From positions 192,001 through 256,000 of the forward strand of contig CAXXLL010000003.1 of the NCBI GenBank assembly GCA_963662545.2: DNA of 64,000 bases. Reading direction: 5' to 3'. Below are positions 44,467 to 60,233 of the stretch, in pieces; the stretch's first letter is position 1, and the number at the start of each line of letters is the position of its first letter. The DNA comes from Gammaproteobacteria bacterium (GTDB taxonomy: Bacteria > Pseudomonadota > Gammaproteobacteria > Ga0077536). The notes beneath the pieces are model-generated. The model was not told the origin of the DNA. It was given only the letters and a program-made list of their open reading frames with translations, and searched no databases. The position numbers were made by a program, and so were the translations under genes.

Positions 44467-45981
44467 ATGGTCAAGATCCTTGGAATATCGGCGAGTCTTC
44501 GTAACGCTCGATTCGGCGCCGGCGGCACCAAGCTGACAGACGATCTCGCGGCGTTGGAATCGCGTGAAAGTTTTGTGCAATTCCTGTCGGATCAAACGAG
44601 GATCCTCCTCGAGGAGTTTTTTGACCAAGGACGAAGCGAAGGTCTCGACTTCGAATCGATGTACCGGCGGCTCCGCGGTTCTTCCGGAGATCGGGGTCTA
44701 AGCAACTCGGAAGGTACGCTTGCCGCCGCCCTCTGGGGTGCCAGCCGGGAAGGTGCCGAAATCCGCTACCTGGGACTCGGTCATCATTTTCGCGGTGACG
44801 GTTCGGTCGCCAACATCGATGCGGTGCGTGACGCGATCCTGTGGGCCGACGGCATTATCCTCTCAGGACCCGTTTACTTCGGCGACCGTGGCTCGCTCGC
44901 GCAATCCCTAGTCGAGTTTCTCCACGCGGACGCGCGGTGTCGTGCCCATATCCGCAACAAGGTCTACGGCGGCGTGACCGTCGGCGCCAAACGCAATGGG
45001 GGTCAGGAAACGACACTTATTTATCAGCTCGTCGACATGACTAATCTCGGCATGCTCGCGGTCGGCAACGGCAGCGAGACTACCTCGCAGTACGGGGGAA
45101 CTGCCGTCGCGGGGGATGTTGGCACGATCCATCTGGACGACTATGGTATAGAAACCTCGATTAGCACAGGCGCTCGCGTCGCCCGGGTCACGAAACTTTC
45201 CGCCCTGGGAATTGCTGCTCGCATCTCCGATCCCGTACGCATTGGCGTGTGGTTGCTACAAGACAGTCCCGACCATCGTGGACGTGAACTTATCAGCGAA
45301 CTCACAACGTCATGGAGCAGCGAGGGCGATAACGTCGAGTTCGAGATTCTCGATGGCCCGGCGGAACCGATTCACCGATGCATCGCATGCGACATTTGTC
45401 CGATCGACGTCGGGCCACCGGAGGAGTACCGCTGCATTATTAAGAGCAAGGATGATCTGTTCAAAAAGCGACATGTTCAACTGGCGTCCGTTGACGCTCT
45501 GCTGATCGCGGCCTACAGCCCGCGTGATCGGAGGGACATACTCAGCGTTTACCAGACATTTATTGAACGCACGCGCTATTTGCGGAGGGATCATTACCTG
45601 CTGGGGGATCTCTTCGTTGCGCCGCTGGTAATCAGCGAGATCGGCGCCAACCAAAACTTGCACATCCGGATCCTGACGTCCATGGTCCGGCACCACACGA
45701 TCCTTCACCATGCCCTGATCGGCTTTGAACAGGATCGACGTCTGCTCAACCAGCAGGATCTCGAGGAGGGTGGGAAACACTTCGCCAAGCTTGCAGTTCA
45801 AATTACCGCAGGCCGGCTGCGGCAGGCGCAGGCCGCGGGAAAGGACGTCTATCAACCAGTCGGTTATGTGGTGAGCGAAGAGAAGCTTAAAGCGGATCGA
45901 GAAGACGGGAAATTGGAGAAAGCACTCGAAGCGCGCGATGCAGTACGCAAGCGCGATAGGCGACGAATCATTGCCGGATAA
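44467..45981 (+). CDS. Tandem flavodoxin-fold (iron-sulfur flavoprotein / FMN reductase-like) protein
   Basis: Domain 1: KILGISASLR, ADGIILSGPVYFG, NKVYGGVTVGAKRNGGQETT; domain 2: CIACDIC...YRC, YQTFIER. Confidence 0.8.
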   Translation: MVKILGISASLRNARFGAGGTKLTDDLAALESRESFVQFLSDQTRILLEEFFDQGRSEGLDFESMYRRLRGSSGDRGLSNSEGTLAAALWGASREGAEIRYLGLGHHFRGDGSVANIDAVRDAILWADGIILSGPVYFGDRGSLAQSLVEFLHADARCRAHIRNKVYGGVTVGAKRNGGQETTLIYQLVDMTNLGMLAVGNGSETTSQYGGTAVAGDVGTIHLDDYGIETSISTGARVARVTKLSALGIAARISDPVRIGVWLLQDSPDHRGRELISELTTSWSSEGDNVEFEILDGPAEPIHRCIACDICPIDVGPPEEYRCIIKSKDDLFKKRHVQLASVDALLIAAYSPRDRRDILSVYQTFIERTRYLRRDHYLLGDLFVAPLVISEIGANQNLHIRILTSMVRHHTILHHALIGFEQDRRLLNQQDLEEGGKHFAKLAVQITAGRLRQAQAAGKDVYQPVGYVVSEEKLKADREDGKLEKALEARDAVRKRDRRRIIAG

Positions 45982-46036
45982 GCGCAGCCACAGCGCCGCC
46001 GCCCGATTTCTTCCCGTGAGTGCCCGCAACATACTG

Positions 46037-46144
46037 ATGGCGGTAGCATCGGTCGCCGGATGGTTCGTGCTCGAAGGTGCCGTCCTGGTCGCGCTCTACC
46101 TCGCCTCGGTCGACCTCGAGATGTTCCGGTATGCCGGTTTTTGA
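46037..46144 (+). CDS. DltX-like membrane micropeptide (acyl-shuttle motif FxYxxF); start may be further upstream (45971 or 46016)
   Basis: MAVASVAGWFVLEGAVLVALYLASVDLEMFRYAGF*: one TM helix and terminal FRYAGF; overlaps start of next gene. Confidence 0.72.
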   Translation: MAVASVAGWFVLEGAVLVALYLASVDLEMFRYAGF

Positions 46145-47207
46145 GGCTCGCGACGCCGGACAGGGGATCGCTCCGATCCTTGCTGCCGCCGCACTGTGGG
46201 CACTCCTCTGTTGGTGGTTAAACCAGAGTATATCGCTCGACCTGATACGCGGCACGCCGATGGGTCCATGGCTGGCAGACATCAGGGATGACCACACGCG
46301 CATCGCGCACCGACTGGCCAATATGAACTACGAGGAGCCGATGGTACTCATCGTGGGCGGTTCGTCGTTTCGCGAAGCATTTGACTCGGACTGGATTCTA
46401 GAGCGCAGAATGCGGGAAGTGCTCGGTCGCGGAATCAATGTGGAAAAGCTGTGCAGCGCCTCGCAATCGCTGTTTGAAAGTTTCGCGATACTTCTCGAAG
46501 CGATGCGGGACAACCGGCTTGCACCCGGGAGCGTGGCTATAATCGGAATGAATCCGCATCGATACGCATCGGGCCGTGAAGAGGTAATCGCGAAGGTGCG
46601 TGCGCCGTTGATTCCTTTCCTCGATCACCGTGGCGCCGCGGAGCGGGTGATCGAGAACGAATCGATTCCCGGTAGATTTCGCCTGCTGACGCAGAGGGGA
46701 GTTGCGCGGCACTGGATCGAGCAACGTCTCCGCAACAGCCGCAACTGGCTGGACGGCGATTGGCTTGCTCCCCTCCCGTATCTCGAATATGCCTGGCCGG
46801 ACCGCCCCCTGCCGACGAACGAAAAGCATAAACACGCCCATGCCGTAGCATCGTGGCTGGGGAAGGATTTCGAAGGAAGCCACGATTTCGCCCAAAACGT
46901 TGCGCGCCAACTCGTTGCAAGTTTGCGAGATGAAGATATCGAGGTTGTCATGCTTCAATTGCCGCGAGATTCGCGCATCGTGGATGTTTACCAACCGTAT
47001 GCCGAAACGTACGAAACGCATCTGGCCGAACTCTACGAACTAGGCGCACGTCCGTGGGATCTGCGGACACTGGGCTTGGACGACGACGCGTTTTCGGACC
47101 TGTTTCACGTACGGCCTGGCGCGCCCCGCGATGCCCTGACCACCGTATTCATCCAACGCTTGACCCGGCTCCTTGGCGGGTCTGAAGGGACTCCCCTTGG
47201 ACGCTGA
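46131..47207 (+). CDS. DltD/AlgJ-like SGNH-fold periplasmic acyltransferase
   Basis: N-terminal TM, LIVGGSS catalytic-Ser block, FSDLFH (DxxH) near C-terminus. Confidence 0.7.
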   Translation: MPVFEARDAGQGIAPILAAAALWALLCWWLNQSISLDLIRGTPMGPWLADIRDDHTRIAHRLANMNYEEPMVLIVGGSSFREAFDSDWILERRMREVLGRGINVEKLCSASQSLFESFAILLEAMRDNRLAPGSVAIIGMNPHRYASGREEVIAKVRAPLIPFLDHRGAAERVIENESIPGRFRLLTQRGVARHWIEQRLRNSRNWLDGDWLAPLPYLEYAWPDRPLPTNEKHKHAHAVASWLGKDFEGSHDFAQNVARQLVASLRDEDIEVVMLQLPRDSRIVDVYQPYAETYETHLAELYELGARPWDLRTLGLDDDAFSDLFHVRPGAPRDALTTVFIQRLTRLLGGSEGTPLGR

Positions 47208-47457
47208 TACGATTCAAAATGAGCTGCGAAAGTTTCTGGTCGATGAACTCGGTATCGAAGAGCGGGAGCTCGACCCGGCCAGCCGCTTGATCACCACCGG
47301 AATCATCGATTCCATGGATATGCTGATGCTTGTTGCATTTGTGGAGAATAATTTCGGTCTCACGATCAAAGCACTCGACGTCAGCGTCGAGGAGTTCGAT
47401 AGTCTCGATAGACTGGCAGAGTTCGTTCTGCATCGTGCCACCGCATCTCTGGGCTGA
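47197..47457 (+). CDS. Acyl carrier protein (DltC-like)
   Basis: 86 aa acidic protein; GIIDSMDML phosphopantetheine site; EEFDSLDRLA; TTG start with GAAGGGA upstream. Confidence 0.88.
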   Translation: MDADTIQNELRKFLVDELGIEERELDPASRLITTGIIDSMDMLMLVAFVENNFGLTIKALDVSVEEFDSLDRLAEFVLHRATASLG

Positions 47458-47488
47458 ACAGTTGCAAACCGGGAGCGTCAACATAGCG

Positions 47489-49165
47489 GTGGATGCAGAA
47501 ACAAAGCCGTCGGCGCCGCAATCGAACACATTGCGGGCGTGGAGTCTCATTGCGCTGCTGTTCATCGTCATCGTGCTACTCGAAGGATTGACTGGCGACC
47601 GCTCCGAACTGCGTTTCCAGGGAGGCAAACCCTCCTTCCCGCTGATCCTGTCGGCAACCGGCGCTCCTCTGGAGATCCATTTCAAATCTGGTCCACGCGA
47701 GGAACTGGTTATTGCGGAGGGCATAGGTACGACGCGACTGCAGCGCGATCCCAGCCGCGCAAAGGACGCGGGGTACGAAGTGCGCAGCCTGGACGACGGT
47801 ACGGTCCGCACGCGTCTTTCCTTTCGACGGTCTCCTACTCAGAAGACGGTTTCACTGCGGCCGCCGTCCGGCATCGAAGCCATGCGCCTCGATTCCTTCG
47901 ACCTTCGAGTGGTCAAATCCACGCGCGCGACTATCGGCGGTTACGAAGCGCTCGGCTGGCTGGTGGTTGTCTGCTTTGCGTGCATTCCTGTCGTCTGCCT
48001 GTTAGGGCGTTCCCCCGTGTTCAGTCAATGGGTGTTTGCTGCCTCCACGCTGACCTGGATGTTGTTTTTTCAGCCGGCGTTCGCGCTTGCGCTGCTCGCT
48101 TTTCTAGTCTTCGTGCACCGGCTTGGGCTCGAGTGTGCACGCAATCATATAACAGGAAAAGGAGCTTCCGCGTGGAACCTACTGCGGCTCGGTGGCGGCA
48201 TGGCGCTGGCATTTCTACTGGTTGGAAAGTACGGCGCCGATGCCGTCGCCGAGCTCTTCGCAAACCCCGGTGGCCTTGCGCTTGCAATGCCACTTGGCAT
48301 TTCATACTTCGTCATCCGAGTTCTCGATACACAGTTGCGCTGGTATCGGGGTGACCTCGTTGACGTAAGCCTGCGCGAATTTCTCGCCTATGTGCTTTTT
48401 CCCGCAACCGTTGCGGCAGGTCCTATTGCGACGCTTCCGGGGTTCCGGAAGGGTTGGCTGGGCCCGGTCAGCCTGTCGGAAATCGGGCCTCCGATACGTC
48501 GTATCCTGCAGGGGATAGCCAAAAAAATCGTATTGGTCCAGATCTTTCTCGGAGGCATGCTGTTCGGCATCGGTCCGGTTGCATTCGATCCCGGGCTCAT
48601 GATTCAGGTGCTGTGGGATCCGATGGGCGTCACCTCCGGACGCATTCTGATGCTGCCATTTCTGATGCTTCTTTATTCCTATCTTGATTTTTCCGCTTAT
48701 AGTGACATAGCGATCGGATTCAGCCGGCTTCTCGGCGTACGAATGGTGGAAAACTTCAACTGGCCAATTCTGGCCAGTGACCTCCAGGAATACTGGCGTC
48801 GATGGCACATGTCGCTATCGGGCTGGTGTCAGCGCAACATCTTCATGCCAGCTACACTGGCGACGCGCAACCAGTTCGTTCCGGCTTATCTCACGATGCT
48901 GGCGGTCGGGCTCTGGCACGCGTTCGCCTTACCTTGGTTTCTATGGGCCTTGCACCATGCGACCGGTCTGATCGTGTTGAGTAAATGGCGGCACCGCCGC
49001 GGGCGCAAACGCGAACTATCGCGCGGGCGAATATGCGCCGGAGTGGGGCTCACCCTGACGTTCGCGGCGGCCGGCTATTCCTTTGCATTCATCGGCGACA
49101 CCGCAACCGCGCTGGCCATATACGGGCGCTTCTGGATCACACTCGTGACACTCGGGCAAATTTAA
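47489..49165 (+). CDS. MBOAT O-acyltransferase (DltB/AlgI family) with N-terminal extension
   Basis: PLGISYF, YLDFSAYSDIAIG, ENFNWP, YWRRWHMSLSGW, GLWH; start uncertain. Confidence 0.88.
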   Translation: MDAETKPSAPQSNTLRAWSLIALLFIVIVLLEGLTGDRSELRFQGGKPSFPLILSATGAPLEIHFKSGPREELVIAEGIGTTRLQRDPSRAKDAGYEVRSLDDGTVRTRLSFRRSPTQKTVSLRPPSGIEAMRLDSFDLRVVKSTRATIGGYEALGWLVVVCFACIPVVCLLGRSPVFSQWVFAASTLTWMLFFQPAFALALLAFLVFVHRLGLECARNHITGKGASAWNLLRLGGGMALAFLLVGKYGADAVAELFANPGGLALAMPLGISYFVIRVLDTQLRWYRGDLVDVSLREFLAYVLFPATVAAGPIATLPGFRKGWLGPVSLSEIGPPIRRILQGIAKKIVLVQIFLGGMLFGIGPVAFDPGLMIQVLWDPMGVTSGRILMLPFLMLLYSYLDFSAYSDIAIGFSRLLGVRMVENFNWPILASDLQEYWRRWHMSLSGWCQRNIFMPATLATRNQFVPAYLTMLAVGLWHAFALPWFLWALHHATGLIVLSKWRHRRGRKRELSRGRICAGVGLTLTFAAAGYSFAFIGDTATALAIYGRFWITLVTLGQI

Positions 49166-49181
49166 CGAATCGGCGCCGTCG

Positions 49182-49595
49182 ATGAAGCAAATAATTGCTT
49201 GTGTGATGATTCTGGGCGCGGTCGGTCCCACTTGCGTATCCGCCCGGGCGCTCGATGTCTACATGATTCAGGAAATGCGTATCTGTCGTGTAATCGTCGA
49301 AGCCAGGCCACTTCGGGCCAGCGACTCTGATAGCGATCACCTCGCCCGGTTGCGTTTGGACGTCGTCGACGCCGTGCGCTCAATGCCTCCCGCGGCCTGT
49401 CTACCTGGTACGCGCAGGCTGGCCCACGTGGTCTTGCCGCTCGCCTGGCGTGACAACGGCCTACCTCACTGGCACCGCGTCCGCATTCTCGCGACCTTCA
49501 AGGTACAGCCTGAAACTTGGGCGGCCCTGCTGGAAGTCGCGGCCCAACCGCGGCCGCTGGCGGACGCCCTGCCATGGGCTGACGATCGGTACTGA
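49182..49595 (+). CDS. Hypothetical exported protein
   Basis: 137 aa; signal-like MKQIIACVMILGAVGPTCVSARA; TGATG coupling to next gene. Confidence 0.6.
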   Translation: MKQIIACVMILGAVGPTCVSARALDVYMIQEMRICRVIVEARPLRASDSDSDHLARLRLDVVDAVRSMPPAACLPGTRRLAHVVLPLAWRDNGLPHWHRVRILATFKVQPETWAALLEVAAQPRPLADALPWADDRY

Positions 49596-51055
49596 TGGCG
49601 AAGGACGGGCTTTCCAGGTACCTGCTGGAACTGTTACGTCGACGCGCGGACGAAGATGATTATGCGATTCGGGATCTTGAACGCCAATACAGCGCGACGG
49701 AACTCTTACGCGCGGCCGAGTCGAGCGCAGCTGCGCTTGCGGAATGCGGCCTCGGCCCCGGAGACACGGTCGCCGTAGCTAGCCACAGGGGCCTGGATTT
49801 CGTTGCCGATGCATTGGGTGTCTGGCATTGCGGTGGCGTGCTGGTGCCGTTCGACACGCACTGGAGTGCGCGCCATCAGGAAACAGTGCGGCGCAAATCC
49901 GCCGCAAGCTTTTCAATCGGGTTCGAACTCGACGATGCGGTCCGCGTCCACCCTGGTGACGGTGCAACGAAACCCGTCGTTGATTCCAACGAGTCGGCAA
50001 ACTCCCGCTCCGTCATTCTTTTCACGAGTGGCTCGACCGGAGAGCCGAAGGGCGTGGCCTTAAGCGGTACAGCACTGCTTGGTAACGCACAGGCGGCGGT
50101 GCAACGACTCGGGTACCGCGCAGGCGCGCGTTTCGCGATCGCCACACCGTTCCATTTTACCAGCGCCCTGTGCCATGCGCTCGCCTGCCTGTTAACCGGT
50201 GCGCCTCTAAGCTTGCGCGAGGACGGTCCGGCGCCGGCCGACTTCATCGAATGGCTGGTTGTGGAAGGGGCCGACGGTTTCGGTGGTGCACCTATACAGC
50301 TTGGCTGGCTGGCAGACGGCGGATTGGAGAAGCTTACGGCGATGCGCTGGTTGATGTCGTCCGGGGACCGTCTTCCGGAGAAAACGATCCGCGATCTTCT
50401 GGCGATTCGTCCGGCTGTCGACGTCCATACCGTCTACGGGCTTACCGAATTGGGCGGGCGTTTTTGTACGCTCCCTCCGCACGAATTACCCGAGCATGCG
50501 GGCACCGTCGGACGCCCCATTGAAGGTCTGAGCCTGCGCCTACGCGACGAGCACGGGGTCGAAATGGGGCCCGGAGAGACGGGTGAGGTGTACGCATCCG
50601 GGCGTTACATGATGGAGGAATATGTCGGCGAGCCGGAGGCCACCCGCGCCGCCCTCTCTGCAGGCGAACTGCGCACCGGGGATTTGGGCGAACTCGACGA
50701 TGCCGGACGGCTACGATTACACGGTCGCAGCGATGAGGTCATCAAGGTCGCAGGACAAAAGGTCAGCCTGGTTTCCGTCGAGGATGCGATACGCGAACTC
50801 GGCCTATTCCGGGATTTTTCCGTTCTCCCGTACGCGCATCCCGTGCTCGGGACAACCCCGGCTTTGTTCTACGTCGGACGCGAGGGCGAGGCTTTGCAAA
50901 AGGGCGCGTTGCTCCGTCAGCTTCGCAAGCGCCTGCCCGGTACTCACTTGCCACGAACTCTGATCTCCGTCGACGAAATCCCGCGAACCGGTTCAGGCAA
51001 GGTAGACCGCGCCGCGCTCGTGCAATTCGCGCCACCGGTTTCCGAAAGAAGCTGA
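49595..51055 (+). CDS. Class I adenylate-forming enzyme (acyl-ACP/CoA ligase) in the DltA position
   Basis: FTSGSTGEPKG, YGLTE, RTGDLG, GRSDEVIK, PRTGSGKVDR. Confidence 0.88.
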   Translation: MAKDGLSRYLLELLRRRADEDDYAIRDLERQYSATELLRAAESSAAALAECGLGPGDTVAVASHRGLDFVADALGVWHCGGVLVPFDTHWSARHQETVRRKSAASFSIGFELDDAVRVHPGDGATKPVVDSNESANSRSVILFTSGSTGEPKGVALSGTALLGNAQAAVQRLGYRAGARFAIATPFHFTSALCHALACLLTGAPLSLREDGPAPADFIEWLVVEGADGFGGAPIQLGWLADGGLEKLTAMRWLMSSGDRLPEKTIRDLLAIRPAVDVHTVYGLTELGGRFCTLPPHELPEHAGTVGRPIEGLSLRLRDEHGVEMGPGETGEVYASGRYMMEEYVGEPEATRAALSAGELRTGDLGELDDAGRLRLHGRSDEVIKVAGQKVSLVSVEDAIRELGLFRDFSVLPYAHPVLGTTPALFYVGREGEALQKGALLRQLRKRLPGTHLPRTLISVDEIPRTGSGKVDRAALVQFAPPVSERS

Positions 51056-55676: not shown

Positions 55677-57150
55677 TTAATTCGCCACCGCCACGCGCGG
55701 CGCGATTCGTTTAACGGTCTCGATGTCGCCGCTGAAGATAAGGACCGGCCAGTCGCCCCCCCCATACATCTTTAAGTGCCTTTCATTGGATACGCCTCCT
55801 AGAGAATAATTCGAGGACGGGATCAGAGAGCGATAGACCTCCGCGGTTACCGCCGCGATCTTCGGCCAGGTGAAACGTTTGCGCGCTTGCGCGGCATTGC
55901 CGATATGGGCGATCTTCTCGTGCGAATTGAGAAACTCGATGATGGTTCTGGAAAGCGCATTGGCTTCGACGGCTTTGAGAATGATGACGTCACGACCGCT
56001 GATCAGTACGCCCGGTCCGAAGGTGTCGATATTCGATATGCTCAGCACGGGATTCCCCGTGAGCATCGCTTCCCTGCCGGCGATGCCTAGCGAATTCTTG
56101 CCGCCGTCCGCCTGACCGAACCACATGGCCTCGAGTTCCGCCAACGCATGGAAGACCGGGACGTGCATGTGTGGCGGTACGCCGGCAAAGATCATCGTGC
56201 CCTCGAGTCCGAGCTGTCTTACCAGATTGACAGGCCGCTGGTCGCAGACGGCGCCGACGACGACCACTACAACCTCCGGGGAGCGAACACATACCGCCGG
56301 CATGGCACGGATCAGATCCGGACGAGACGGTTGCGCAGCGTATGGACGTGACCTAGCGAGAGAATGACGCGGCGCGCGGCGAGGCCGAATTGTTCCACGA
56401 TCCGGCGCTCGACGCCGGCACCGGAGCGATCCGGAAGGCTGCTGCCGTAAGGTACGAAGTGCCCGTCGTCGCGACCGAAGGCTTCGGCGAGATACGCTTG
56501 TATATTCACGCCCGGGTAGATCACGGCGTCCGCGTGCCGTACTGCGGCGTGCCGCAGAAAGCCGCGATCAGCCGAATACAACAGCAGATTGAAAGCGCGA
56601 ATACTGTGCTTGATGACCGTGTGCAGGGTCAAGGCCACGGTCAGACCGAGCGAACGCTTCAATGACATCCCGGCAAACGCCATGTCGAACATATGATTGT
56701 GAAGGTGCAAAAGATCGATGTCATGACGCTTGATGATGGCTTCCATACGACGCAGCTTGGCCGGCCAGAACGTCCAGTTCAGCCACGGGAAATTCATTGC
56801 AATCGACATTCTGGGCAAGCGTGGCACATGCACGCCGTAGATCTCGAAACCGTCCAAGACCTCGTAATCGGGGATCGATGGATCGACCTGCGCCATGATC
56901 ACCACCACATGATGTCCGAGCGATGCCAGCTCGCGCGAAAATCCGAGGATCTGGGTCGCCGAACCGGTCGTAATGCGGTGAACCAGATTGGTGAGCAAGG
57001 CGATCCGGTGCGGCTGGCCCGCCCTTGTCGGCCTGTTCGTTCCCGGCTGCATAAGCGCCGCTGGATCCGGCGCATCGAGCGTATCGGTGGACGTCGCCTG
57101 CGATGCGGGCTTGCGGACCAGGGTCATGATGAGTTCATAACTGGACATGC
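55677..57150 (-). pseudogene. Frameshifted glycosyltransferase family 4
   Basis: N-half (LGHHVVV, HLHNH, LTLHT, SLGHVH) stops at 56312; C-half (GIAGREAMLTG, RFTWPKIA) continues in another frame from ~56315. Confidence 0.72.
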
Positions 57151-57170
57151 CGGCACTGAATTCTACAGAA

Positions 57171-57668
57171 TCAGGTGAGGCGTTGTACCGCATCGCTACG
57201 CGCCACGAGCGCAACATGCCGACCCGCGACTTTCAGCAGCAGCGCGACGCGGTCGCGCCCTCTCAGCTCGGCCACGACGGCCTCATAGCCGGCGAGCGCC
57301 CCCTCGATGATCTCCACGCTGTCGCCGGGGACCAGCGCTTTCTGCATCACCTCGCAGACATCTTCAGCGCTGGCATGCGCCTTCAGTTCATCGATCCATG
57401 CATCCGGTACGCGCGCATACGCCGCGCCGAATCTAATCAGGCGCAACACGCCGACGGTCGATCGGATCGGCCCGAAATTGTCCACGTCCGGACTCAGCTG
57501 GACGAATAAGTACCCCGGAAACAGCGGTTCGATGCGCTCGCTGCGCGGGCGGCGCACTCGCAGCCGCGGCAGCCAGGTGAGGTAGCCCTGGCGCTCTAGG
57601 TTCTCGCGCGCGACGGCTTCACGGCGTGCTTTGGTCTGCAGTAGATACCACTCGCGGGACACGCTCAC
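57171..57668 (-). CDS. rfaH: Transcription antiterminator RfaH (NusG paralog)
   Basis: WYLLQTK, ENLERQG, EPLFPGYLFV, PIRSTVGV, FG, KOW-like PGDSVEIIEGALAG. Confidence 0.9.
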   Translation of the reverse strand: MSVSREWYLLQTKARREAVARENLERQGYLTWLPRLRVRRPRSERIEPLFPGYLFVQLSPDVDNFGPIRSTVGVLRLIRFGAAYARVPDAWIDELKAHASAEDVCEVMQKALVPGDSVEIIEGALAGYEAVVAELRGRDRVALLLKVAGRHVALVARSDAVQRLT

Positions 57669-58708
57669 GGCCGGTCTCCCGCGGGTATTGAGAACGAAAA
57701 ATCACGCGCAAACTCGGACAGTGGAGCCGCTCGCTCCAGCACCCGTGCGATGTCGCGTTCCAGCGAAACGGCAACCTCATTCGTAAAATGCAGCGGATCC
57801 CAATAGTTGGTGTCCGCACGCGTCAGTGGAGATATGTGCATAAAATCCAGTACCGCCACATTATCGAAATTCGGCAACAGCGCTGCAAGCCGGCCCTTGC
57901 ACTCCCTCAGATTAGCGACCCTGCCGGCGACATAATGACTGTGCAGCGGTGGAAACAACAGAATGATTCGCGTCGGTGCCGGCGTTTCGTTCAAGACATC
58001 GCGCAAGACATCGAGCAGTGGGTAATCCCACCCGGGTTGTGTCAAGGTGGGCGCGATCTGTACGTCAGCGACCGGGAGCTGCGCGGTCCCGTAAAGACGC
58101 TCCCTGACCACCGCGAGGTCGTAGGATCCGAAATCAGCCGTGAAATCGCGGTACCCGTCGAGACGATATTTTGGCTCGCGCCTGCCTGTCAAAAGCTCCA
58201 ACATCCGCACCGCGTTCTCCAGCGCCTTGTCGTTGAACAGGTACAGCAGGTCGTTCCAGCGATTCTCGTCGTACATCCATTCGGGAAACGCGCGGAACGT
58301 GTATTGCTTAATCGTGTCGGCACGGTTACACCAAGTCTCGTCGATGCCGAATACGAGGTAGCGCGCGTCGGGATGGTGGCGCACAAATACCTCGTGTATC
58401 CGCGTCTGTTCGTAGGCGGTGGCTGAATTCATCGCGAGATTGACAAACCGGGCGTCGAGCAATTGGCCGAGCCGCGCGGGATCGAGCAGGCGCACGGTTG
58501 AGGTCCCGATGATGGCCCCGTCGAAGTCCGGATCGCGTGCCAGCGCCGGGTAGGCAAAGCGTTGATTCGTGCTGACCGGTGCGCGGTTCAACGCAGGCGA
58601 AAACAGCACGTTCTGGTACGGATCGAGAATCAGGATGAAGGCGTATAGACAGACGCCGATCAGCAGGGTGGCGAACAAAACGAAGCGGGTGAACCGCGGC
58701 CAGGCCAT
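57665..58708 (-). CDS. SGNH-like periplasmic protein partnering the AlgI-like MBOAT
   Basis: N-terminal TM then DPY, IIGTST, VNLAMN, NYWDPLHF (DxxH). Confidence 0.7.
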   Translation of the reverse strand: MAWPRFTRFVLFATLLIGVCLYAFILILDPYQNVLFSPALNRAPVSTNQRFAYPALARDPDFDGAIIGTSTVRLLDPARLGQLLDARFVNLAMNSATAYEQTRIHEVFVRHHPDARYLVFGIDETWCNRADTIKQYTFRAFPEWMYDENRWNDLLYLFNDKALENAVRMLELLTGRREPKYRLDGYRDFTADFGSYDLAVVRERLYGTAQLPVADVQIAPTLTQPGWDYPLLDVLRDVLNETPAPTRIILLFPPLHSHYVAGRVANLRECKGRLAALLPNFDNVAVLDFMHISPLTRADTNYWDPLHFTNEVAVSLERDIARVLERAAPLSEFARDFSFSIPAGDRP

Positions 58709-58765
58709 CGTCTAATTGAATGTCCCGCATGACAGGACGCTTTGTAGTTTAAAACGGAAAGTTTT

Positions 58766-58860
58766 ATTCGCCCGCAAGCGGGTTCCTACCCGGGCAATGC
58801 TGTAGGAGCCCGCGTGCGGGCGAATCGAGAGCGGTCTCGTAATTTGAAACACCTGCTTAG
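58766..58860. repeat. GTAG-type REP doublet (REPIN-like) with conserved flank
   Basis: attcgcccgcaagcgggttcctac (58766-58789) inverted to gtaggagcccgcgtgcgggcgaat (58802-58825), then ...aaacacctgcttag. Confidence 0.75.
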
Positions 58861-60233
58861 AACTGGAAGTAAATGAACTCGAGTCCGCGTCCCTGACCGA
58901 CGCGCATGATGGTCGCGATCATCAGCAGAGCGAGCGGTACGGCAACGAGACGGCGGGCGATCCACCTCATGCGAGACAGGTCGAAATTGGTCGGCCCTAG
59001 CAGCGCGAACCCGAGGCCGATTAAAACCAAGCGCCAAGCTTCGGTGTCCGTCTCGCCATCCCCGCCGAAGCCGAGCATGGCCGCGACGAGGTTCATCGCC
59101 ACGCCGAAATCCGCGGCCCGGAACAAGACCCATCCAATCACGACGAAGAACATGGTAATGGCCCAGCCCGCAAACGCCGGCATGCGCCACGGCGTCGCCA
59201 TCCACAGCCGATTGCAGCAAACCGCGAGGCCGTGCAATCCGCCCCAAGCGATGAAGGTCCAGCCGGCGCCGTGCCACAAGCCGCACAACAGCATCGTGAA
59301 CACCGCGACGGCGACCATGCGCGCGGCGCCCTGGCGACTGCCGCCCAGCGGGATGTAGACGTAGTCCCGCAGAAACCGCGACAAGCTCATGTGCCAACGG
59401 CGCCAGAATTCGCGAATGCTCTTTGCGCGATAGGGATTGTCGAAATTAAGCGGCAGGTCGAATGCGAAGATCGCGGCGAGGCCGAGCGCCATGTCGGAAT
59501 AGCTGGAAAAGTCGAAATAGAGTTGCAGCGAATATGCCAGGGCTGCCTGCCATGCGCCGTCAAAGCCGAGCGCGGTGCCGGCCGCCACCATGGAAAAGCC
59601 TGCATCGGCGATCGGCGCGAGTTCGTCGGCGAAAAACACCTTCTTGACCAGGCCCAGGATGAAGAGCACGAGGCCGCGCGCGATGCGTTCGACCCCGCCG
59701 TCACCCAGCGGGCGGGCGTCGAACTGTGGGATCAATTCGTTGTGGCGCACGATGGGTCCGGCTATCAGCTGTGGGAAAAAGCTCACGAAACAGGCGTACT
59801 CCAGCAGGCCGTAGACCGGTGCCTCACCCCGCTTGAGATCTATGAGGTAGGAGATCTGCTGGAAGGTAAAAAAACTGATCCCCAGTGGAAGAATGATGTT
59901 GAACGCCTGGAATTCGATGCCCGCGAAGCTCAGTACGGATTCAGCAAAGAAATTCGTGTACTTGAAGAAACCGAGCAGTGCGAGATTGAAGGCAATGCCG
60001 CCGATCACGATGGCGCCGCGTTCGAACCGCGCGAACGCGCGCGCGACCAGCCAGTTCACGAGGATGGTCGCGACGAGCAAAGGCAGAAAGCGCACGTCCC
60101 ACCAGGCATAGAAAACCAGGGAGCCGGCCAGCAGCACGGCCAGCCGTAGCGATCGACGGCCGGCCACGGCGTAGTAGGCCGTCACCACCAAGGGCAAGAA
60201 TAGGAGAATGAAGAACTGCGATGAAAACAGCAT
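58857..60233 (-). CDS. algI: MBOAT O-acyltransferase (AlgI/PatA family)
   Basis: MLFSS.FILLFLP, FFKYTNF, LPLGISFFTFQQISY, FFPQLIAGPI, EFWRRWHMSLS, GLWHGA, C-terminal EFIYFQF. Confidence 0.92.
   Translation of the reverse strand: MLFSSQFFILLFLPLVVTAYYAVAGRRSLRLAVLLAGSLVFYAWWDVRFLPLLVATILVNWLVARAFARFERGAIVIGGIAFNLALLGFFKYTNFFAESVLSFAGIEFQAFNIILPLGISFFTFQQISYLIDLKRGEAPVYGLLEYACFVSFFPQLIAGPIVRHNELIPQFDARPLGDGGVERIARGLVLFILGLVKKVFFADELAPIADAGFSMVAAGTALGFDGAWQAALAYSLQLYFDFSSYSDMALGLAAIFAFDLPLNFDNPYRAKSIREFWRRWHMSLSRFLRDYVYIPLGGSRQGAARMVAVAVFTMLLCGLWHGAGWTFIAWGGLHGLAVCCNRLWMATPWRMPAFAGWAITMFFVVIGWVLFRAADFGVAMNLVAAMLGFGGDGETDTEAWRLVLIGLGFALLGPTNFDLSRMRWIARRLVAVPLALLMIATIMRVGQGRGLEFIYFQF

Follow-up and report, generated by a model that had tools for sequence, protein, structure and literature searches.

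A probable DltX-type acyl-shuttle microprotein encoded beside a tail-less MBOAT in a bacterial surface-glycan cluster

What is the function of a 35-codon open frame that ends in F-R-Y-A-G-F and runs into the start of a gene for an SGNH-fold protein? The frame (46037-46144, plus strand) lies in the window, by which we mean the whole 64,000-nucleotide stretch of DNA that was analysed, from an organism apparently known only from assemblies. It is one of seven closely spaced plus-strand genes (44467 to 51055) in an extended surface-glycan cluster located mostly on the minus strand. From their translations, we take the surrounding glycan genes to include Wzm/Wzt and RfaH. Pfam assigns the FMN_red, PP-binding, MBOAT and AMP-binding families to the cassette genes that start at 44467, 47200, 47489 and 49595, respectively, and no family to the 358-aa SGNH gene. 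The features of the cassette, and of a second system in the same window, are as follows.

44467..45981, plus strand: 504-aa protein of flavodoxin fold (FMN_red) in which a C-x2-C-x2-C...C motif is conserved; it heads the cassette here and in two related loci (L170, L173)
46037..46144, plus strand: micro-ORF of 35 aa (42 aa from the GTG at 46016) that has a single membrane helix and ends in the hexapeptide FRYAGF, which contains the proposed acyl-shuttle Tyr32; no Pfam or NCBIfam family
46124..46144, plus strand: codons of F-R-Y-A-G-F and the stop codon, the last 14 nt of which overlap the SGNH start
46131..47207, plus strand: 358-aa SGNH-fold transferase with an N-terminal helix and Ser78, Asp323 and His326, putatively in the DltD role (72-row alignment, structural model and Foldseek)
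47200..47457, plus strand: 85-aa acyl carrier protein (PP-binding), putatively in the DltC role
47489..49165, plus strand: MBOAT of about 558 aa (start approximate) with a DltB-like core, His477 and a short C-terminus that lacks the Tyr motif
49182..49595, plus strand: 137-aa ORF between the MBOAT and ligase genes; assigned to no family and not seen in the related loci examined
49595..51055, plus strand: 486-aa adenylating enzyme (AMP-binding), putatively in the DltA role, with P-F-H-F-T-S in place of the DltA P-Y-S-F-D-L
57665..60233, minus strand: separate system that serves as an internal control; its AlgI-type MBOAT (58857-60233) itself ends in a FIYFQF tail, and a 347-aa ORF without a Pfam family (57665-58708) is the probable partner gene

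We propose, with a probability of roughly 0.8, that the micro-ORF product is a DltX-type acyl shuttle that acts in trans, with transfer via its tyrosine suggested by analogy with DltX and PatA. The FXYXXF shuttle mechanism reportedly goes back to Schultz et al. 2023. According to a 2025 paper (PMC12148441), the acyl group is carried in both DltX and PatA by the tyrosine of a C-terminal FXYXXF motif.

Is the micro-ORF a gene? The sequence-only reading had described an ORF of about 35 aa with a single transmembrane segment that ends in FRYAGF and overlaps the start of the SGNH gene. Translation of the window confirms this description. The 35 codons are open and followed by a stop, the only hydrophobic stretch reaches 2.01 in its best 19-residue Kyte-Doolittle window, as in one transmembrane helix, and the overlap with the SGNH gene (ATG at 46131) amounts to 14 nt. 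The frame is open further upstream, where a GTG at 46016 would yield 42 aa and an ATG at 45938 would yield 68 aa; a clear ribosome-binding site is absent before each of the three candidate starts (45938, 46016 and 46037). Because related peptides with plain starts have lengths of about 37-47 aa, the comparison favours 46016 or 46037 as the true start. As to a DltX-like basic cytoplasmic N-terminus, the 42-aa form has one Arg and the 35-aa form has none N-terminal to the helix, a result that depends on an ambiguous start codon; the 35-aa form also contains a Glu within the helix and is in these respects unlike DltX. The expectation that annotation pipelines would miss the ORF or call it a frameshift held only in part: the 35-aa form is absent from the protein collection (NCBI, Logan and ENA), and the 68-aa form and a separate 358-aa SGNH protein are both annotated there. 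A single metatranscriptome run yielded four short contigs over 44490-46001, none of which reaches the peptide.

A frame that is this short and lacks a strong ribosome-binding site could be a chance opening between two genes, a reading that the rarity of its terminal motif renders extremely improbable. In the whole 5.58-Mb genome, a strict F-x-Y-x-x-F directly before the stop occurs in only 4 of 129,678 stop-terminated frames of at least 25 codons (a looser rule gives seven matches). All four are preceded by a hydrophobic helix and each is found in a sensible context: the micro-ORF, the AlgI-type MBOAT at 58857-60233 (FIYFQF) and two DUF5989 peptides. Furthermore, the GC content of the micro-ORF at the three codon positions (0.71/0.40/0.77) resembles that of the neighbouring genes, and the peptide is conserved as a protein in eight related loci. 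The chance reading was rejected on motif rarity in the genome and on this conservation.

The overlap of 14 nt, which recurs in a related locus from Methylococcaceae (L003), could also mean that the micro-ORF is the N-terminus of the SGNH protein, severed through an error in sequencing or by programmed frameshifting. However, no continuous protein from 46037 to 47207 was found. Three other sequencing runs, one of them possibly the source of the same DNA, each cover this region in a single contig that shows no indel. The motif occurs within the first 80 residues in 0 of 116 SGNH relatives, which begin at their own helix. Moreover, the peptide and SGNH genes do not overlap in L004 and L083, lie on opposite strands in L170 and L173, and are arranged with the peptide downstream of the SGNH gene in L169 and L174. 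The severed-terminus reading is refuted by these observations and retains practically no probability.

How widely is the peptide conserved? A separate ORF ending in F-R-Y-x-x-F is present in all eight related loci. The order peptide, SGNH, carrier, MBOAT and ligase is repeated in L003 and in L004 (Magnetococcus), the closest among the loci fetched, and the peptide is also found in L083 and L084. The remaining four were obtained with an SGNH alignment as the query, which is blind to the peptide. This search covered about 800 genomes and matched 3 of 400 and 2 of 399 scored, one match being a duplicate of a known locus. All four new loci (L169, L170, L173 and L174) carry the peptide, with the tails FRYAGF, FRYAAF, FRYAGF and FRYQNF, respectively. 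The single SGNH sequence as the query retrieved no related loci in genome contigs and none in 60 related genomes, and a word-index search with it returned only its own cluster.

Across the nine aligned peptides, no position other than the F, R, Y and final F of the motif is invariant. The terminal tyrosine, whose conservation was in question, is present in 9 of 9, and the other eight peptides are 23-38% identical to the micro-ORF product. The codons of the motif vary synonymously among the related loci, and TGA, TAA and TAG are all used as the stop. An invariant motif with varied codons and three different stops argues that selection acts on the peptide, and conservation in the eight related loci is, as judged from the alignment, at the protein rather than the DNA level. 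A peptide profile matched 385 of 713 candidates at E<=10, and all 120 matches listed end in F-R-Y-x-x-F; this search is biased, as its candidates were selected on shared words, those of the motif among them, and the majority of matches lie close to L083 and L084. By these sequence criteria, the micro-ORF is a real, conserved gene for a tiny membrane protein.

Beyond the close group, the tails FIYIDF, FFYQGF, FVYVMF and FGYLNL were found in distant lineages, with the tyrosine fixed while its neighbours vary. The last of these is a terminal-Leu variant from Nitrospina (L005:8843-8980, plus strand), in which the peptide directly follows the MBOAT and the ligase terminates in a carrier-like domain. 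L006:5935-10967 contains two tandem sets of SGNH, short MBOAT and peptide genes, with FVYVMF as both tails and the first MBOAT in two pieces; a carrier or ligase was not seen near these sets. Short MBOATs with free peptides also occur at L118:2429-4234 and L090:845-2710, where genes of about 600 aa lie upstream. We take these genes to encode FkbH-like loaders, which would be a third kind of cargo supply.

Does the peptide supply what the MBOAT lacks? The window MBOAT had been said to end in ...FWITLVTLGQI without the motif, and this is correct: the protein terminates so at 49165, it holds no other copy of F-x-Y-x-x-F, and the terminal motif is found in 0 of 38 close relatives. The window MBOAT has 81 residues after the catalytic His, close to the 78 of the DltB in a Firmicute dlt operon (L101), versus 126-187 (median 149; 135 of 137 measured) in MBOATs with tails.

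The association between missing tails and free peptides was examined in 160 loci, retrieved with an alignment of 37 MBOATs as the best 80 of 598 genome matches and the best 80 of 598 metagenome matches; seven loci were dropped since their MBOAT runs off the contig. Under the first rule, the peptide was found in 11 of 21 tail-less and 0 of 132 tailed loci, and five of the 21 turned out to be tail variants and were reassigned. The rule was relaxed after two misses had been noticed and was then applied to both groups, with the peptide within 4 kb. Under the relaxed rule, 13 of 16 tail-less loci have the peptide versus 4 of 137 tailed loci, and the four matches in the latter end in Leu and look like chance. 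Among the 13 are the true Firmicute dlt operon of L101 and L137, a locus with dlt gene order; the three tail-less loci in which no peptide was found (L091, L128 and L160) all have short flanks. A Fisher test on the co-occurrence table yields p 8e-15, a value that ignores kinship and is not relied on. In unrooted trees of 51 rows, with 30 tailed loci drawn at random and L160 left out, the tailed MBOATs form one side of one branch, with a support of 99 with the tails in the alignment and 73 on the core alone. The cases are thus not independent, and the co-occurrence may, on these trees, represent a single evolutionary event.

Both partners that a shuttle would need are encoded in the cassette: an MBOAT with a catalytic His and no tail, and an SGNH protein with Ser and Asp-x-x-His. 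The MBOAT is closest to DltB among solved structures, both by sequence and by fold, and its His477 is invariant in a 37-row alignment. In addition to the core, the region 47489-47930 (plus strand) encodes an extra N-terminal helix and a beta-rich domain of about 110 aa that is probably periplasmic; two cysteines found in this domain in most relatives are missing in the window copy. In the SGNH protein, Gly76, Ser78, Asp323 and His326 are kept across 72 aligned rows, with Ser78 in 90% or more and Asp323 and His326 invariant. Its structural model (pLDDT 93.7) retrieves DltD chains in the top nine Foldseek rows, with a best E of 1.2e-5 at about 10% identity. A wider structural search with the model ranks small GDSL esterases (Z 15.4, 171 aligned, rmsd 2.6) level with or above DltD (Z 12.6, 252 aligned, rmsd 4.4), and comparing the SGNH sequence with those of solved structures produced nothing above noise. 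The model thus confirms an SGNH fold for the 358-aa protein, with a modest predicted likeness to DltD.

On this basis, a four-step relay can be proposed. The adenylating enzyme would activate a carboxylic acid, probably not an alpha-amino acid, and load it onto the carrier protein, a step consistent with the enzyme classes present. The MBOAT would then use His477 to move the acyl group from the carrier thioester to Tyr32 of the peptide at the periplasmic face; these residues are conserved, and the reaction is modelled on DltB/DltX and PatA. The peptide tail would pass the acyl group to Ser78 of the SGNH protein, whose fold and Ser/Asp/His set are those of such an enzyme. The SGNH protein would finally esterify a surface glycan, most likely the polymer of the surrounding Wzm/Wzt-type cluster, as its neighbourhood suggests. 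In this relay, a one-helix inner-membrane peptide with a predicted periplasmic C-terminal tyrosine would replace the C-terminal arm that is fused to AlgI/PatA-type MBOATs. The suggestion that the peptide supplies in trans the tyrosine missing from the MBOAT is supported by the separate peptide gene, its invariant tyrosine and the tail-less partner MBOAT family. A complex prediction for MBOAT residues 148-558 with the peptide scored 0.01 against a mark of 0.32, in a test in which the controls were not folded.

Would a peptide of this kind need to carry the acyl group at all? It could be a real but purely structural subunit that tethers the MBOAT to the SGNH protein while the acyl group takes another route. 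DltX also has a bridging role, as noted in PMC12148441, and the invariant Arg and two Phe would suit a docking motif. However, the tyrosine is located at the same distance from the C-terminus as the acylated tyrosine of DltX and PatA and remains fixed across lineages in which its neighbours change, and the MBOAT holds no other copy of the motif. We consider the purely structural role improbable and retain the shuttle as the preferred reading.

The acceptor is less firmly placed than the shuttle itself. The relay could operate as proposed and deliver its cargo to something other than a surface polysaccharide, such as a lipid, lipid A, peptidoglycan or a protein. Most of the glycan genes are on the other strand from the cassette, the neighbours shown in L003, L170 and L174 are not clearly glycan genes, and the MBOAT belongs to a family with an extra, probably periplasmic domain. 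In contrast, the cassette lies among sugar-nucleotide and glycan genes in the window, in L004 and in L173, and known MBOAT-SGNH pairs acylate envelope polymers (PMC12148441). A different acceptor is unlikely on balance, with a surface glycan being the preferred target of the shuttle.

What cargo does the cassette move? In amino-acid-activating enzymes, an Asp at the DltA position binds the alpha-amino group. This Asp of the DltA P-Y-S-F-D-L is replaced in the window ligase (P-F-H-F-T-S) and is missing in all five ligases of the close group (window, L003, L004, L173 and L084), which share P-x-x-F-T-S. With an adenylating enzyme that lacks the amino-acid-binding Asp, the cargo is probably not D-alanine, and the neighbourhood together with this one residue suggests that the window cassette probably handles a non-amino acid. 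The Asp is present in the ligases of L169 and L174, which adjoin PLP-dependent decarboxylase-like genes; the L170 row of the comparison is an adenylate cyclase and does not enter these counts. The relay seems, from the same neighbourhood evidence and the same residue, to act as a shared core that is fitted with different cargo genes. In L003:4466-6325 (minus strand), ComA, ComB and a glyoxalase-fold gene take the place of the flavoprotein, are divergent beside the peptide gene and give a hint of sulfolactate cargo in that locus. The flavoprotein of the window (44467-45981, plus strand) is a two-part protein of about 500 aa that is about 50% identical to its counterparts at L170:563-2089 and L173:3614-5122, and it may prepare the acyl cargo. 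The 137-aa ORF at 49182..49595 may lie outside the system.

A broader picture, which we offer tentatively and place somewhat below even odds, would make DltX a single branch of a large group of free tyrosine-shuttle microproteins. Such proteins would work with tail-less MBOATs across many phyla, in cassettes that swap their cargo genes. The clade of the window would export a non-amino acid onto a Gram-negative glycan. An unusual, possibly sulfonated or redox-tailored acid is suggested by the P-x-x-F-T-S ligases (5 of 5), the flavoprotein with its Fe-S motif (window, L170 and L173) and the sulfolactate-making ComA/ComB of L003. As further parts of this picture, the split state may predate the fused tail of AlgI and PatA, and the tails of DUF5989 peptides may carry carbamoyl groups without an MBOAT. 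For annotation, a simple rule follows from the proposal: a short MBOAT is a reason to look nearby for a tiny F-x-Y-x-x-F gene. The peptide would also be a small unit on which the cargo could be read directly.

How does the cassette compare with known systems? A literature search conducted mostly without subscription journals found no publication that describes free shuttle peptides beyond the dlt operons. The closest likeness is to the dltXABCD operon, which likewise combines an adenylating enzyme with a carrier protein, a tail-less MBOAT and an SGNH protein. DltX (PF12459) is a protein of about 50 aa with one membrane helix and a C-terminal FXYXXF, and the window peptide, at 35-42 aa with one such helix and the same terminal motif, agrees with it in these features. 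Neither the window peptide nor 10 related peptides matched PF12459 at E<=1, whereas the DltX of L101, as a control, scored 54.6 bits against a cut-off of 25; membership of the micro-ORF peptide in the Pfam DltX family was therefore rejected. The window MBOAT (131.6 versus the DltB cut-off of 375) and carrier (15.9 versus the DltC cut-off of 52.35) are likewise below their cut-offs, and no DltA model is among the best 25 matches listed. With an MBOAT and a carrier below the cut-offs and a ligase that lacks the Asp, the cassette appears to fall outside the D-alanine-transferring dltABCD operons. It also differs from dltXABCD in its gene order, the extra N-terminal domain of its MBOAT, the flavoprotein at its head and its location in a Gram-negative glycan cluster.

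Gram-negative Dlt-like operons offer a second comparison. The dltXABCD genes are reported for all Dickeya in 10.1101/568105, and the Gram-negative DltX is described in PMC5541007 as having the same topology as the Firmicute protein without sequence likeness to it, with dltX often missed. The Dickeya and Pectobacterium operons thus resemble the window cassette in a small membrane DltX of the same topology (PMC5541007; 10.1101/568105). Compared by description only, they differ in that they are named dlt and tied to antimicrobial-peptide resistance, whereas the window cassette has another ligase signature and extra parts.

PatA/PatB and the AlgI-type systems share the same hexapeptide and, by analogy, would share the same acyl-Tyr chemistry (PMC12148441). 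In those systems, the MBOAT itself bears the motif, on two additional helices, and acyl-CoA serves as the donor, whereas here the motif belongs to a separate gene accompanied by a carrier and a ligase. The window MBOAT, without a C-terminal motif of its own, is not of the fused AlgI/PatA type. Both designs occur side by side in one glycan cluster, where the fused AlgI-type MBOAT at 58857-60233 accompanies the split cassette. Next to that system, adjacent ORFs of 301 aa and 208 aa at 55677-57217 (minus strand) resemble the halves of one glycosyltransferase gene that is perhaps broken.

DUF5989 (PF19451) peptides are a further likeness, at about 50 aa with one helix and an F-I-Y-x-x-F end. The two copies in the genome, at C3:80725-80883 (L163:5726-5884; tail FIYAIF) and C3:522524-522676 (L164:5525-5677; tail FIYTLF), belong to cassettes with SxtJ-like and carbamoyltransferase genes, and no MBOAT was found beside them in the 11-kb stretches read. 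The L163 copy is also beside a GDSL/SGNH gene, and its carbamoyltransferase gene is shortened by an apparent insertion sequence. The two score 66.1 and 95.5 bits against PF19451, which the window peptide does not match. As their tail equals the acyl-shuttle motif, DUF5989 peptides may shuttle carbamoyl groups.

The shuttle chemistry itself has been published before, and the literature already contains a Gram-negative DltX that is dissimilar. PMC12148441 describes MBOAT/SGNH pathways other than Dlt as lacking both a DltX-like microprotein and a carrier protein. Since the window cassette has a microprotein and a carrier and does not look like a D-alanine system, the split, carrier-fed design appears to be wider than that paper states, and it would be able to move acids other than D-alanine.
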